DNA of 55,230 nucleotides from a virus (IMGVR_UViG_3300031555_001876); one strand, 5' to 3'; shown: positions 1 through 55,230, counted from the stretch's first letter. The notes: a model not told the origin generated them from the sequence alone. A program made the numbers and translations.

Positions 1-1213
1 CTAAATTTTCTTTTTCAGTTACTAAAGCATTGTAATTTGCCTCTAATGCGCTATAACGGTTTAATAATTCAGTGTATTCTTCTACTTCTTCAAGAACATA
101 CTTTTTCTTTTTATCTTCGTCATTATGCTCACAGGTGCATTCAGACTTTGGTTTGCCGCATTCAGGGCACTTTTCTTCTGATTTATTATCAGAATTCTCG
201 GATTTAGTTTTTTCTTCTTTGCCCTAATTTTCTTCATCTTTTTTTGCTTTGTATTCAGCAATTGCTTCTGCACTGAATTGAGGCTCTTCTTCTGGAGTAT
301 ACTCAATAACTTCAGTTTCTTCAGCAAAAGAATAAGTATTAGTTTCAGCATCTAAAGAAAAACTTAATTTAACATACTCTTCACCATTTTTGAGAACAGC
401 AAAAGTACTTTCATCCTCAAAAATTCCCTCAATAGTCATTTGAGAAAGATTTGTTTCAACATAACTATAAAGAGCAGTCCATAAAGCGTCACCAATTTCA
501 ACACTATATCTGGAAAACACTTTTTCTCCTCCTTTATTATTTAATAACTCCCTCAATTCATCCATCATTGTACGAAGTTCATTTTTAAAACTATCATCAA
601 ATGAGAACTCTATTGTGGGCTTGGTAATTGTAGAACCTTCAAAACAAGGTTCTTCTTCATCACCTAATATACAAAGTTTTGAAATAATTGCTTCATTGAT
701 AATGAAGAATTCAGGCATACCATTATTATCTTCTGTCCAATAAGCATTTAAAGTTTCTTCATCTAATTCCATTGAATGATTATTTCCTTTATCAACACAG
801 CGTTGACATTCTTTATACTATTTAGTCCATAACCATCCTTCGGTCATTAAATATTCACGCTCAAATTGGTCATCATCAATGAATTTCTAAAACCACACCT
901 TAGCATTTAAATCAACAAAACCATAAGGCTTAGTTTTATCAATAATTTTAAATTCTTTATTTGTGATTTTTATTTCTCTACTATGTTCTTCAAAATCTTC
1001 ATTGTCTTCAATATAAAAACCAACAATAGGACAACCAGGCAAACTATTAGCCATTTTAGTTGCTACTTCTTTTGTAATAATACTTCTATTACGATTTGGT
1101 TTATCACTGACATAACATACCTTAATTTCGCATTTAGAAATTAAAGGATTATATGGAGTTATATTGATAAATTCAACAGGTGAAGATTCTAATCTAACAC
1201 TTTTATGTCTCAT
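1..1213 (-). CDS. Acidic, Glu-rich protein with a CPECG...CTCEH zinc ribbon near the C-terminal part. The gene runs off the left edge of the window, so the 3' end is missing. Possibly a morphogenesis or scaffold-like protein.
   Basis: ORFs 887..1213, 224..772 and the stretch 1..223 share one frame and are joined by in-frame TAG codons at 887-889, about 820, and 224-226. The start is ATG 1211-1213, with an AAGGAGG ribosome binding site at 1219-1225 on the minus strand. Translation across the TAGs reads as continuous, sensible protein. Confidence 0.5.
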
Positions 1214-1381
1214 TATTCATCCTCCTTAACTCATTGATTCATTATTCTAAATGGTTTTTTCACTTTTTTCGCCTTCAGCCTTTTGCGGGCGTCCACCTTT
1301 GTTATCTCCAGTAGTAGACGCAGATGTAGAAGTAGAAGTTTTCTTCTACCCTAAAATATCCTCGCCGCTTAAAGTAGAACT

Positions 1382-2833
1382 CATAAGTGGAGGAATCATA
1401 ATTTCGCTTAATTTTAAATTATCATTTTCAAAATAAGCAGTATTTAAGATGAAACTCTATGAATGTCCAAGCGCAATTTGCGGCAACATTTTTGAATATC
1501 CTAATTGAGTTTGTTCTTTATACATTTTTGATAAGTCTTTATAATTATATTGTGTAGTTTCAAGCATATAAAATTTAAAGACATATCCGCCTTTTTTAGA
1601 AAACTTTTTAGCAATAATATTATCAAAGAAAATATGAAACTATAATAATAGATTACGCATTATAGATTCATCATTTAAAATAGATTTTTCAAGAGATAAA
1701 TTACCATCAGTATTAAATAAGTTCTGTGAAATACCAAAAGCATTAAATAATGCTCTTTCTATTTTCTCTAAATCATCAGTAGTTGTTGAACTATTACTAT
1801 CGTGCGTATCTATTGAATCAATATCAGCAAAAGTAGTTAATACATCAACACCCACTGAACGTTTTAACATCTGAACTGCGTTATTATGAATATCTCTTGC
1901 TTCATCAACGTCAAAAATCAAATCGCCATTCTTATCTCTTGGAAGTTTTTGAACTATAATTTTTAATAATCGTTGCATTTGTTTGCGACGGTCTAAATCT
2001 TGCGCTGCATCTAAATCTAAAATTGCGGGAATAGCATTAATAAACATTGGGACATCACTATTGTTAAAATTAAATTTAATACTTGAACCTATATCTAATA
2101 AATACCAACTACCATATTTATCATTCATATTATCTCTTGGTAATTTACCTTGTTTATAAAGCATATATCCTTTTTTAAATTCATCAGGAAAAAGATTTAA
2201 TACTCGCATTCGATAATTAATATCGCTAAAAGTATCAAAAAAACGCATATCAAATTCAATAGCGGGCAATTGACCTACAAAATATCTTGAACGGCAATAT
2301 TTAACAGGCAACTACTGTAAAACAATCTAATCATTAGAAGGAACAAGATAAGCATAATATGCTCCATTCTTAATTACTTCTAAAGCAATGTCTCCGCATA
2401 TCTTTTTAATATGGCTTGCATCTAAATATTCAAGAACTTTATTAAACTCTTTTAATATTTTTTCATCTTTAATTTTATCATCATAGATGGTCGGCGCAAC
2501 ATACCAATCATATCTATATAAAGAAGCAAAATAATTACAAACTCTTTCATAAATACCATTTATATTATAATAAAAATTTGAAATATTTCGTAATTCTTCT
2601 AAATTGTGTTGTCCAATAGCCATCTAAATAAAAGCCTTATTAGTATATTGATGCCGAGGAAAAGATTTCTGTAAAGACCCTAAATCCAAAACCGCATCAG
2701 TTAAAGTTTTAGTGCCTACTTTTATTTTTCCATAATCTAAAAATTCACTTATTTCATCACGTCTATTTAAATTATATTCAGCATAACTATCACTTATATT
2801 AAAGCCTTTAGCGTGAATAGATTCTTTATTCAA
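1382..2833 (-). CDS. Hypothetical protein of about 480 aa. It may be the portal protein, but only because of its size and its position downstream of terL.
   Basis: Three ORFs (2624..2833, 2327..2623, 1640..2311) and the downstream stretch are in one frame. They are interrupted by TAG at 2624-2626, 2327-2329, 2312-2314, 1640-1642 and 1457-1459, and the frame closes with TGA at 1382-1384. The start is TTG 2831-2833, preceded by AAGGAGG. Confidence 0.4.
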
Positions 2834-2845
2834 AACTCCACCTCC

Positions 2846-52953: not shown

Positions 52954-52967
52954 GGGGGTAAAAAACG

Positions 52968-54866
52968 ATGGCTTTAACATTTGGTAAAATCAATCGTGCG
53001 GCGAGTTTTAACCCTACAACCGCGTTCCCACTTGATGCGCGCAGTTATTTTGAAAGTTATGATTTAGCCGTTGCTGCTGCCTTAACTGCCAAAGAGGCAG
53101 GCGATACTACTACTGTTCACTATTATGGTGAAACTTTATGTGTCGTTGAAAATGGCGCTGCTAAACTTTATATCATTCAGCCAGAAGGCAAATTAGAGCC
53201 AGTAGGCAGTGATGTTAAAGTTAGCGTAAATGAAAATGCTTTTACTTTTACTGATGGTAAAATTGATTTACTTGGCTTTAGTGAAGCAGTCGCGGGCGCG
53301 CAATTAGTAAAAACTGAAGACGGCAAAATCTCTTGGGTAAAACCTGATGCTACCACTGTAGAAGGTTTACAAACTGCGGTTAGTACTTTAGAAACCAATG
53401 TTTCTAATTTAACTACTCTTGTAAATAATAAAGCAGATTCTTCTACTGTATACACCAAGACCGAAGTTGACAATAGTTTAACTGCTATTACTAATACTTT
53501 AGATAATAAAGCAAATGCGGCTGATGTATATAGTAAGAGCGAAGTTGATGGTTTAGTTTCTCCCAAGGCTAATGCTGCTGATGTATATACTAAATCTGAA
53601 ATTGACGCTTTAGTTAATCCTAAAGCCAATAGCAGTGATGTTTATACTAAAGCCGAGGCTGATAGCGCGATTGCCGCAGCGGTTGCAGGTGCCGAACATC
53701 TAAAGAGACAAATCGTTGACCAAGCCGATATTGACATTTATCTTGCTGGACCTACTCTGGCTGAAAAGAATGTCATTTATATGGTTAAGACTGGTGCATC
53801 CAGTGATGCTTATAAAGAATATATGCGATTTGACGCAGAAGATGGCACTGTAAGTTTTGAACAAATAGGCGATACTTCTGTTGATTTAAGCAATTATGTT
53901 ACTTCTGATGCTTTGAATAGTAAGGCAGACGTTAGTGTTACTGATAATCTGGCTGCTTTAATTCAGGCAAATACTAATAATATCGCTTTAAAGGCTAATC
54001 AATCTGATTTAGAGACTTTATCTACTTCTGTTGGAACTAATACCAATGAAATTGCTGCTTTAAAAGAAGCAATGAATGATAAAGCCGCAAAGAGTGATTT
54101 AGAGAGTTTACAAGAAATTGTTAATTCCAAAGCCGCACAAAGCGATTTAGATAATTTAAGCAGTACTGTTTCTGCTAATGGCGAACAAATTGCTTTATTA
54201 GAAACTAATAAGGCTGATAAGAGTGATTTAGAATCTTTACAAGAAGTTGTTAATTCTAAAGCCTCTCAAAGTGATTTAAATGCTTTAGCAAAGATTGTTT
54301 CTGATAATTCCACGGCTATTGCAACAAAGGCTAATCAATCTGATTTAACTGCTTTAAGCGGCGTTGTTGATAATAAGGTTGATAAAGTTTATAGTGAAGT
54401 CGATGGAGAACAAGTTGCTTGGACTTTATTAAGTCCTACTAATGCTAAAAAGTTAGAGTAGTTAAGTATTGATGAAGATGGTAGTGTTGGTATCTCTGGT
54501 ACTGTTGCTGCCGATAAGGTCGAAGGTCTTGCTGACTGGATTACAAGTAAGCGTGACACCGTTCCTGGTTTATTCTCAACTACTTATCAATCTAAACTTG
54601 ATGGTATTGAAGAAGGCGCTCAAGTTAATGTAATTGAAGCAATTAAACTTGCGGGCGCTGATGAAAATCTCGCTATTGCTAACAAGACTGTTGAAATTCC
54701 TTATGCAACTGATAGTCTTGCTGGTATTGTTAAAACTTCTCAAGAAATTACTTTAAATAGTGATAAACAATTAGAAGTTTTAAGTTTGAACGTGGATAAG
54801 TTAGTACAGACTGGTGATTTACTGCTGAATTGCGGTGGAGCCACTGGTTTTACTTATTCTGAATAA
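52968..54866 (+). CDS. Tail fibre protein of about 632 aa with periodic repeats (KANAADVYTKSEVD; KANQSDL..L).
   Basis: Ribosome binding site GGGGGTAAAAAACGATG. In-frame TAG at 54459-54461, then the frame continues to TAA at 54864-54866. Repeats of 17-19 aa are typical of fibre shafts. Confidence 0.6.
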
Positions 54867-54895
54867 TTTTAAATTTGAAAAGGAGATAATTATTT

Positions 54896-55230
54896 ATGGC
54901 TACTGCTAATAAGACTTTACAGACAAGAATTCAATTAAAGTATGACTCTTATGAAAATTGGATTAGCAATAACCCTGTATTATTAAAAGGTGAAATCGCT
55001 GTTGCTACTGTCTCTGTCCCCGCAGAAGGACAAACTAATACTCCCGATTTTCAGAATCTGCCTAACGTTGTTTTAAAAGTTGGCGATGGTAGTTCTCATT
55101 ATAATGATTTAAAATTCGTAAGTGGTTTAGCCGCTGACGTATACAAATGGGCTAAGGCTGATAAAAAGCCTTCTTATTTTGCTAATGAAATTCAGGGTTT
55201 AACTGAATATGTTCAGAATATTTCTGACGT
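54896..55230 (+). CDS. Tail fibre protein with a HylP-like N-terminal domain. The 3' end is cut off by the right edge of the window.
   Basis: AGGAG ribosome binding site. Motif TRIQLKYDSYENW...PVLLKGEIAVA...KVGDGSSHYNDL. Confidence 0.55.
   Translation, partial: MATANKTLQTRIQLKYDSYENWISNNPVLLKGEIAVATVSVPAEGQTNTPDFQNLPNVVLKVGDGSSHYNDLKFVSGLAADVYKWAKADKKPSYFANEIQGLTEYVQNISD

Follow-up and report, generated by a model that had tools for sequence, protein, structure and literature searches.

The window, by which we mean the whole 55,230-nucleotide stretch of viral DNA analysed here, begins with a minus-strand virion and packaging block and also carries small plus-strand genes, a promoter-rich early region, a short minus-strand module, a long plus-strand middle region, two tRNA arrays and fibre genes (Table 1). 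We re-derived its open reading frames with TAA and TGA as the only stops and found at least 57 in-frame TAG codons across about 24 genes, bearing out the claim of a preliminary description that many genes on both strands contain them. The leftmost frame is read as a YonD-like virion gene, and in relatives the gene after the portal encodes a 480-aa YonD_N protein. The large terminase (terL) has 120 full-length homologues of 580 aa at 80-92% identity and is 46% identical by tblastn to the terL of cultured Enterococcus and Geobacillus phages. The orthologue of the YonG-like protein in relatives carries Pfam YonG_N, and the radical SAM gene matches Pfam Radical_SAM, under its cutoff, and Fer4_12.

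Table 1. Features of the window, with in-frame TAG codons where present
Feature	Position	Strand	TAG codons	Remarks
YonD-like virion gene, partial	2..1213	-	3	Runs off left end; 404 open codons, no TAA/TGA
Portal protein	1226..2833	-	7	phrog_2739 portal, E 1.9e-83
Homing-endonuclease-like (HNH-like) gene	2846..3202	-	3	phrog_9084, E 2e-23
Large terminase (terL), YonF-type	3220..4962	-	7	
YonG-like protein	4962..6170	-	6	phrog_3314, E 2e-54, stretch 3-346
Sigma-factor-like protein	6173..7285	-	4	phrog_5767 sigma factor, E 1.6e-51
Small gene	7356..7787	+	1	
Small gene	7975..8361	+	1	
Small gene	8578/8605..9132	+	2	
Early region	10402..20268	+		Small genes; 12 perfect TTGACA-N16-18-TATAAT (consensus sigma-70) promoters
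Minus-strand module	20944..22769	-	17 per 1000 codons	
Module gene	20944..21402	-		TAG is penultimate codon
Module gene	21509..21742	-	0	
Initiator-like wHTH protein	22068..22769	-	7	Weak HTH_36 match
GIY-YIG homing endonuclease	33240..33959	+	3	Pfam GIY-YIG, E 3.3e-10
Prs-like phosphoribosyltransferase	34263..35135	+	1	Codon 8; Pribosyltran domain
First tRNA array	43257..46569	+		Part 1: Leu-UAG, Asn, Asp, Tyr, Glu-CUC, Val-GAC (weak); part 2: Glu-UUC, Met-CAU (weak), Ser-ACU, Ile-UAU, Arg-UCU
ArfA-like small protein	44992..45162	+		56 aa; directly upstream of tRNA-Glu(CUC)
Twister-like ribozyme	46153..46233			Within tRNA array
Radical SAM gene	47691..48974	+	1	Codon 42, after CxxxCxxC-Y
Second tRNA array	49963..50549	+		Pro-UGG, Val-UAC, Gln-UUG (50284..50359), Leu-UAA
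Mtd_N fibre N-domain gene	51336..51704	+	2	Pfam Mtd_N, E 7.9e-12
Tail fibre gene	52968..54866	+	1	Codon 498

The three small genes between 7356 and 9132 have no homologues among the fetched loci. One of them had been described as a gene at 8605..9051 closed by TAA or TGA, but that end is itself a TAG (9049-9051), which may be a sense codon rather than a stop; with TAG read as sense, the frame closes at the TAA at 9130-9132. A RepA_N-like gene with a single TAG had also been reported and could not be identified: the sole initiator-like wHTH frame is that of the minus-strand module, with seven TAGs and no RepA_N match at E<=1.

In-frame TAG codons in conserved genes

The TAGs lie in frame in real, conserved genes. 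No TAA, TGA or frameshift interrupts any TAG-bearing gene, and each of the 67 modelled genes closes with TAA (47) or TGA (20), as stated earlier for the frames then checked. The 2409 codons of the six late ORFs include 30 in-frame TAGs, and the off-frames of the same ORFs hold 246 TAA, 220 TGA and 99 TAG; if all stop types struck at off-frame frequencies, the chance of 30 out of 30 interruptions being TAG would be about 0.175^30. The preliminary description had proposed comparing gene predictions under translation tables 11 and 15, and we did so with our own simple codon-usage gene finder. Reading TAG as sense gave a coding density of 69.3% and a median gene length of 138 aa, compared to 61.7% and 104 aa under code 11, and the TGA-sense and TAA-sense readings scored below code 11.

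The counts reported earlier for individual genes were for the most part recovered. Seven TAGs were found in terL (at least seven reported), three in the GIY-YIG gene, two in the fibre N-domain gene, and one each in the tail fibre, the Prs-like gene and the small gene at 7975; the radical SAM TAG directly follows CNLCCTYCY, agreeing with its reported place just after the CxxxCxxC motif. The range of 3-5 given for the genes flanking terL fits the HNH-like gene but not the YonG-like gene, which exceeds it. PHROG and Pfam matches cross these codons as single stretches. Portal, terL, YonG-like and sigma-like proteins are each covered by one HMM stretch that spans their own TAGs (in the portal, 75-533 of the protein, crossing six); the GIY-YIG domain (20-102) covers the TAG at codon 85, and PHROG virion-protein matches at 362-539 and 325-543 of the tail fibre span its TAG. 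The N- and C-terminal parts of the terminase match what appear to be separate PHROGs families of unknown function (15503 and 24618). Relatives keep the same late genes with more TAGs, 13 in terL and 81 across 14 late genes in one locus (L001).

Were the TAGs genuine stops, the window would be either a prophage in decay or a collection of pseudogenes. The late genes are indeed fragmented under code 11, and the JGI code-11 calls split the radical SAM gene into 41-aa and 378-aa products, but the homology continues at full length across TAGs instead of ending at them, and TAG alone interrupts, where randomly placed stops of all three types would be expected of decay. In addition, dozens of assemblies that are independent and come from different samples keep their TAGs at the same positions, and sequence identical to the window is present in separate metagenomes. 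We consider genuine stops extremely improbable. As code-11 annotation shatters the terL, portal, fibre and radical SAM genes, table 15 is needed for this genome.

At the gene ends the picture is less uniform. Five genes (20944.., 39423.., 6173.., 28772.. and 1226..) have a TAG within the last seven codons before TAA or TGA, compared to about three expected by chance, and TAG may have a rare second role as a terminator in this phage. Other TAGs fall near the 5' ends of 35746.., 39423.., 31216.. and 33910.., whose true start codons may lie downstream.

TAG is unevenly distributed. The portal/terL late block has 12.5 TAG per 1000 codons, or 31% of its Gln codons, whereas the early promoter-rich region has none and frequencies elsewhere are 1.6-2.5 per 1000, with about 2 in the long plus-strand middle region. 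The short minus-strand module at 20.9-22.8 kb is again rich in TAG (Table 1). Plus-strand genes from 9291 to 20686 contain no in-frame TAG, and 12 of the window's 13 TTGACA-N16-18-TATAAT matches (0.08 expected) fall in the early region. The recoded codon is thus concentrated in late genes, as in TAG-to-Gln phages, and the gradient between early and late genes is unusually clean here, marked by the cluster of consensus host promoters.

The amino acid at TAG

To assign the codon we compared five late genes, codon by codon, with their counterparts in 66 related loci. At no fewer than 10 TAG sites, the 57-63 related loci showed only TAG, CAA or CAG, or did so in all but one locus. HNH-like codons 60 and 77 (62 relatives) and YonG-like codon 211 were exclusively of these three types, as were portal codons 397 and 458 save for one CGA at 397; terL codons 358 and 537 showed these three only or in all but one locus. 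At sigma-like codon 278, relatives had CAA (51-56), TAG (4-5) or CAG (2). In the reverse direction, the window codon opposite a relative's TAG was most often CAA (520) or CAG (131).

Two further, independent comparisons gave the same residue. The radical SAM TAG aligns with CAG (51) or CAA (29), that is, with Gln in 80 of 80 homologues at about 50% identity, 74 of which lack any TAG. The terL TAGs of a pig-gut relative coincide with glutamines that are invariant or near-invariant in cultured standard-code phages (VRE9_4, Geobacillus E3, Alicyclobacillus KKP_3916, Sundance and FADO), the HFxxQ context being found in all five and GGKEQ and KSQIY in most. The Mtd_N codon-6 TAG is CAA in five of seven relatives, and the fibre paralogue alignment described earlier was reproduced, VTI(TAG)LKRG aligning with TRIQLKYD (ORF from 54896) and TRIALRSD (ORF from 51691). 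The corresponding alignment for the Prs-like gene did not hold: TAG had been placed opposite Gln or Ala, and we find it opposite Asn (MIKLLSY(TAG) against MIRLISNN). Scoring the residue opposite each TAG, as had been suggested for terL and the tail fibre, pointed to Gln in terL, but the tail fibre TAG, which the alignments of four relatives run across, faces AAC or GAT in them. At several window TAG sites distant homologues show K, R, S, N or D, and the amino acid is not fixed there.

Some of these data would suit a different amino acid, for example pyrrolysine, or Ser, Leu or Tyr inserted through a type II suppressor with a long arm. Among the partners of window TAGs, Ser codons rank second (TCT 72, AGT 57, TCA 47), relatives' suppressor tRNAs resemble type II tRNAs in their long extra arm, and ARAGORN calls CUA tRNAs 'Pyl', a label taken from the anticodon alone. 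However, the sites confined to CAA and CAG as alternates, the invariant Gln at the radical SAM site and the tRNA-Gln acceptor stem of the suppressors all argue against it, and no pylS, pylB, pylC or pylD domain was found in about 45 window ORFs scanned; another amino acid is very improbable. The late-gene tallies, the radical SAM site and the terL glutamines of standard-code phages instead support the earlier proposal of table 15, and on these alignments TAG = Gln is a well-supported assignment for the window genes.

tRNA arrays and the decoding of TAG

The window has 14-16 tRNA genes. We searched the 55-kb window, part of a genome of about 185 kb, with ARAGORN (including intron and relaxed modes), Rfam and a custom suppressor covariance model with filters off, and found no CUA-anticodon tRNA in either array or elsewhere in it, extending what had been noted by eye. 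As a positive control, ARAGORN recovered all three CUA tRNAs of phage phAss-1. No release factor, including the RF2 suggested earlier as something to look for, and no glutaminyl-tRNA synthetase was found with Pfam and PHROGs among the ~45 ORFs scanned. In relatives, tRNA-like genes of odd form head the array: one has a 6-nt anticodon loop (L225/L226), and another is a 'UCA' tRNA with C33 (L238).

CUA suppressor tRNAs are present in related loci (L213, L227, L229-L232 and L234), those of L213, L227, L230 and others being 88-98 nt long. L213 is syntenic to window positions 49.8-55.2 kb, the L227 tRNA adjoins a radical SAM homologue, and in two relatives the CUA tRNA lies beside genes that in the window adjoin the tRNA arrays. 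These suppressors match the window's tRNA-Gln(UUG) in the acceptor stem and D-arm, showing an origin from tRNA-Gln. They carry U1-A72, G2-C71, G3-C70 and G73, which we take to be Gln identity elements for E. coli GlnRS.

Together these results suggest, with a probability of roughly 0.88, that the window is part of a tailed phage of about 185 kb from animal-gut metagenomes, belonging to the SPbeta/YonF-terminase group and translating TAG as glutamine (table 15). A phage-encoded CUA tRNA derived from tRNA-Gln and sited outside the window would decode TAG, with TAA and TGA serving as terminators, and expression of this suppressor may delay late-gene translation until the code has switched, as proposed for other recoded phages.

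TAG could also be sense but have another reader: a suppressor supplied by the host, a phage tRNA that is modified or edited (tRNA-Gln(UUG), for instance), or a non-canonical tRNA missed by the tools. Such a reader would account for 55 kb with two arrays and no CUA tRNA, as well as for the close 190-kb relatives, in which none occurs within 10 kb of the terL, 484-aa and 420-aa homologues (~60 kb sampled). The odd genes at the array head in L225/L226 and L238 also fit, and Borges et al., who described clades of gut phages with recoded stop codons, detected suppressor tRNAs in only 40% of TAG-recoded genomes. However, some 130 kb of genome lies beyond the window, syntenic and group relatives carry clear tRNA-Gln-derived CUA tRNAs, and a UUG anticodon cannot tell UAG from UAA, the main terminator here. 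We therefore regard such a reader as improbable and favour a canonical suppressor encoded elsewhere in the genome.

The first array also includes a gene for a protein like the ribosome-rescue factor ArfA, which scores 29.9 bits against Pfam ArfA (gathering score 25.5), matches ArfA chains in the PDB at E 5e-4 and shares the motif NKKGKGSY.RK.KH. Orthologues occur at the same place in L237 and L238; those of L225/L226 and L023 are more divergent. The protein is possibly an accessory of an altered termination regime. It might recruit RF2 to ribosomes that have read past the TAG of TAG-terminated messages and stalled at mRNA 3' ends or, alternatively, tilt release to RF2, which does not read UAG. 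A twister-like ribozyme lies within the array as well, and twister-like ribozymes linked to tRNAs might process those tRNAs. A wider reading, which we hold improbable, is that the tRNA island of this lineage holds, beyond a suppressor tRNA, a termination-control toolkit that includes an ArfA-like factor and tRNA-processing ribozymes; in its most radical version, TAG in this genome would be decoded with no canonical CUA tRNA at all. Of the elements described here, only the ArfA-like gene might alter the current understanding of recoding.

Relation to known phages

We place the phage in the SPbeta/EF1/phAss-1-like group. The Bacillus SPbeta relatives, Enterococcus phages VRE9_4, H1 and EF1, and Geobacillus E3 share its virion module (YonG, YonF (terL), portal, YonD, YonB, YomW, YomV and YomU) but follow the standard code; no in-frame TAG occurs in their terL genes, the one TAG of FADO being its terminator.

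Among recoded phages, the group's phAss-1 (proposed Phassvirus; Babkin et al. 2023, PMC10607447; GenBank OQ749652; NCBI 'Caudoviricetes code 15 clade') resembles the window in TAG-to-Gln recoding of terL, portal, tail and fibre genes, in a YonF-type terL (43% identity), in large tRNA arrays beside NAD-salvage genes (Prs, nicotinamidase), in having no dedicated aminoacyl-tRNA synthetase and in its relation to the standard-code Enterococcus phage EF1. It is nevertheless a different lineage, from a human virome rather than other metagenomes, with a genome of 136 kb rather than about 185 kb, three annotated CUA tRNAs where the window has none, and tRNA genes that are not conserved between the two. 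Megablast found no phAss-1 match to window positions 1-25000. With terL so divergent and the tRNAs not conserved, we rejected membership of the genus Phassvirus and place the phage in the same broad group only.

The clades of Borges et al. are likewise large-genomed, Firmicutes-type phages of animal guts that place TAG in structural genes and avoid it in early ones; the suppressor is detectable in some genomes only, and recoding is proposed to time late-gene translation. By size, Agate and Sapphire are candidates among the named clades. This phage differs in having low-rate TAGs in middle genes too (radical SAM, Prs-like, GIY-YIG). The code-15 crAss-like phages, an unrelated order with Bacteroidota hosts, share UAG-to-Gln decoding, confirmed there at the peptide level (Peters et al. 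2022, PMC9523058) and read here from sequence. Borges et al., Peters et al. and Babkin et al. have already published on TAG-to-Gln phages, and the phage is a further member of the described "code 15" class: one more large Firmicutes-type gut lineage among recoded phages, which leaves the current understanding of recoding unchanged.

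In-frame TAG codons and the choice of genetic code

When the ORFs of the window (55,230 bp, 34.6% G+C) were re-derived with TAA and TGA as the sole stops, long ORFs containing in-frame TAG emerged, together with scattered TAGs in a few small genes of the long plus-strand region. The preliminary description had reported TAG-interrupted frames on both strands, and this was borne out by the ORFs themselves and by single uninterrupted PHROG or Pfam profile matches that span the TAGs of the portal, YonG-like, sigma-factor-like and GIY-YIG genes. A RepA_N identity for the protein encoded at 22068..22769 was unsupported. 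PHROG families 15503 and 24618, both of unknown function, match only terL residues 12-229 (N-terminal) and 354-580 (C-terminal) and look like families built from standard-code (code 11) pieces of recoded terL genes.

Genes and modules of the window with in-frame TAG, and loci of related phages bearing suppressor tRNAs (CUA anticodon, able to read TAG)
Feature	Location	Strand	In-frame TAG	Profile match
Partial YonD-like gene	2..1213	minus	3	
Portal	1226..2833	minus	7	E 1.9e-83
Homing-endonuclease-like gene	2846..3202	minus	3	
terL	3220..4962	minus	7	
YonG-like gene	4962..6170	minus	6	E 2e-54
Sigma-factor-like gene	6173..7285	minus	4	E 1.6e-51
Second minus-strand module	20.9-22.8 kb	minus	8 (7 in wHTH protein 22068..22769)	
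GIY-YIG gene	long plus-strand region	plus	3	E 3e-10
Prs-like gene	long plus-strand region	plus	1	
Radical SAM gene	47691..48974	plus	1	
Mtd_N gene	long plus-strand region	plus	2	
Tail fibre gene	long plus-strand region	plus	1	
Suppressor tRNA, relative L213	1507..1603			
Suppressor tRNA, relative L227	7777..7866			
Suppressor tRNA, other relatives	L229, L230, L231, L232, L234			

The six late virion and packaging ORFs, a contiguous block at the left end, hold 30 in-frame TAGs in 2409 codons, and their off-frames contain 246 TAA, 220 TGA and 99 TAG. Because TAG is the sole interrupter despite such abundant off-frame TAA and TGA, random decay of the late genes is ruled out. Raw coverage by ORFs of at least 100 aa did not discriminate between codes, as TAA-as-sense gives the most spurious ORFs in AT-rich DNA, and it was replaced by our own codon-usage-scored gene finder. 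With TAG as sense, this gave a coding density of 69.3%, a median gene of 138 aa and a summed score of 2894, compared to 61.7%, 104 aa and 2673 under code 11; TGA-sense and TAA-sense both scored below code 11. TAG-sense did best overall, and it exceeded code 11 in density and gene length, the two measures proposed in the preliminary description.

The amino acid at TAG

In a first homologue search, 120 full-length terL homologues carried Q at nearly every TAG position. We dropped this evidence as circular, since these proteins had been called with code 15 (TAG read as Gln) from genes that have 13 TAGs of their own, and switched to codon-level tallies and standard-code homologues. Across 66 related loci, at least 10 TAG sites of the window are occupied in relatives by TAG, CAA or CAG only, or in all but one relative (e.g. 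HNH-like codons 60 and 77, YonG-like 211, portal 397 and 458, terL 358 and 537, and sigma-like 278). Window codons opposite the relatives' TAGs were CAA (520) and CAG (131), far above any other. The radical SAM TAG directly follows CxxxCxxC-Y, and all 80 of 80 IMG/VR homologues (~50% identity), 74 of them TAG-free, have CAG (51) or CAA (29) at this position. The Mtd_N TAG that had been aligned with Gln by eye corresponds to CAA in 5 of 7 relatives. Against a panel of terL proteins from cultured standard-code phages (Enterococcus VRE9_4, Geobacillus E3, Alicyclobacillus KKP_3916, Brevibacillus Sundance and Bacillus FADO), the TAGs of a pig-gut relative's terL fall on conserved Gln, and the window's own terL TAGs lie in variable polar columns. 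Together these sequence comparisons lend good support to TAG encoding Gln, in late and non-late genes alike, the assignment (table 15) put forward in the preliminary description.

Distribution of TAG, promoters and termination

TAG makes up 12.5 per 1000 codons in the late block, or 31% of Gln codons. Its frequency reaches 17 per 1000 in the module at 20.9-22.8 kb and is 1.6-2.5 per 1000 in plus-strand genes. The small genes of the 10.4-20.3 kb region have zero TAG. This region is rich in promoters: the window has 13 perfect TTGACA-N16-18-TATAAT matches (0.08 expected), extended-consensus sigma-70 promoters that mostly carry TG upstream of the -10 box, and 12 of the 13 lie within 10402..20268, with the remaining one at 38699..38727. 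The same motif occurs in relatives' early regions, and appears in related locus L185 as 'LTKP..GII' pseudo-ORF starts. The early/late TAG skew is the pattern described by Borges et al., who interpreted it as translational timing of late genes.

Every modelled gene closes with TAA or TGA, as the preliminary description had stated for the frames it checked, although the gene given there as 8605..9051 in fact closes on TAG (9049..9051). Reading through this TAG would add 26 residues, to TAA 9130..9132; the related loci compared contain no homologue of this gene. Five genes have a TAG inside their last seven codons, compared to ~3 expected by chance, so TAG might occasionally act as a terminator.

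tRNAs, the candidate decoder and related phages

The two tRNA arrays of the window contain 14 confident and 2 weak tRNAs. No CUA anticodon was found in the window by ARAGORN in default, intron and relaxed modes, by Rfam at gathering and permissive thresholds, or with a covariance model derived from the suppressors of relatives and run with filters off, in agreement with the earlier by-eye reading of both arrays; as a positive control, ARAGORN recovered all three CUA tRNAs of the recoded phage phAss-1 (Babkin et al. 2023, PMC10607447; GenBank OQ749652). Five degenerate tRNA-like sequences sit between good tRNA genes (44068..44137, 45282..45360, 45545..45618, 45646..45713 and 50117..50284). Two of them have odd anticodon loops, one is a weak Val-GAC carrying C37, one a weak Met-CAU, and one a remnant that has a T-arm and a D-arm; inspection revealed a CUA anticodon in none. 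We also rejected tRNA-Ser(ACU) (46239..46330) as a CUA reader, as the CUA within its anticodon loop occupies positions 35-37, not 34-36. An A at anticodon position 34, unusual among bacterial-type tRNAs, recurs in the group, in this Ser-ACU and in relatives' Ser-AGA, Cys-ACA and Phe-AAA (L202 17321..17410, L238 13139..13215 and L225 4495..4565).

Directly upstream of tRNA-Glu(CUC), a 56-aa plus-strand ORF (44992..45162) matches Pfam ArfA at 29.9 bits (gathering score 25.5) and PHROG 37108, a family without known function, and has the motif NKKGKGSY.RK.KH (NKKGKGSYKRKPKH) in common with E. coli ArfA. L237 (14510..14668) and L238 (14828..14992) have clear orthologues at the corresponding place, and more divergent ones are present in L225/L226 and L023. 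ArfA recruits RF2 to non-stop ribosomes, and a tie between the ArfA-like protein and TAG read-through is plausible. A twister-P1-like sequence (46153..46233, plus strand; 41.6 bits, below the gathering score of 67.2, E 3.7e-8 locally) ends 5 nt before tRNA-Ser(ACU); its conserved core is intact with a 14-nt insertion, and its place beside a tRNA is reminiscent of the theta ribozymes that accompany tRNAs in recoded phages.

A 185,543-bp contig is on record as encoding exact window proteins, among them the 484-aa and 420-aa products of 41292..42746 and 51691..52953; exact copies of these two also occur on short identical contigs, and a metagenome scan turned up relatives only. Among IMG/VR contigs of close 190-kb relatives, no CUA tRNA was found within 10-20 kb of terL, nor, on relatives' contigs of 98-198 kb, within 10 kb of homologues of the 484-aa and 420-aa proteins; the searched neighbourhoods of the close 190-kb relatives, which include ERZ808297 NODE_12 and ERZ27297542 k141_464725, hold up to 26 tRNAs. 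Searching relatives by tRNA-Gln anticodon-arm pattern likewise found no suppressor, a search via Prs alignment matched only phAss-1-like phages, and the L213 anticodon-arm 19-mer gave chance matches only. L213 itself, syntenic with window 49.8-55.2 kb, has a 98-nt CUA tRNA in an array upstream of its fibre genes, and six phage contigs carrying CUA tRNAs of 88-98 nt came out of a pattern search of IMG/VR; in L227 the suppressor lies directly 3' of the radical SAM homologue. These suppressors and the window's tRNA-Gln(UUG) have a common acceptor stem (U1-A72/G2-C71/G3-C70/G73) and D-arm, with the first 19 nt identical in L230, and the suppressors carry an inserted long extra arm. We infer that TAG is most likely decoded by an amber suppressor that derives from tRNA-Gln and whose gene lies outside the window in the same genome.

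Odd tRNAs head the arrays of other TAG-recoded relatives. L225 (1780..1851) and L226 (2351..2422) have a tRNA-like gene with a 6-nt anticodon loop, GUUAGU, and L238 (11981..12052) a C33 'UCA' tRNA adjoining tRNA-Trp, which we did not accept as an opal suppressor given its C33, its 35% GC and a phage that is TAG-recoded, not TGA-recoded.

The radical SAM gene lies between two paralogues (46977..47687 and 49000..49758) whose Cys/Gly/Thr-rich N-terminal halves consist of CxxxC-type repeats and which may be substrates of the enzyme. Genes of NAD/PRPP-type metabolism occupy 34263..36621, with two diverged Prs-like paralogues around an isochorismatase/nicotinamidase gene (35220..35801); in phAss-1, Prs, nicotinamidase and NAMPT adjoin the tRNA array.

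The window's terL belongs to the YonF type known from SPbeta, with YonG, YonD, YonB, YomW, YomV and YomU homologues as neighbours. Among cultured phages, the closest are standard-code phages of Enterococcus, Geobacillus and Bacillus (terL identity up to 46%); among recoded phages described so far, the closest is phAss-1 (43%), placed by NCBI in the 'Caudoviricetes code 15 clade'. The phAss-1 paper (PMC10607447) reported TAG-to-Gln recoding of the same kind, accompanied by two or three suppressor tRNAs, as well as recoded relatives without detectable suppressors. Borges et al. surveyed TAG-to-Gln recoding in gut phages, and Peters et al. (PMC9523058) report its confirmation by metaproteomics. 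Given these precedents, the phenomenon is a known one that was correctly detected, and what is new is the lineage.
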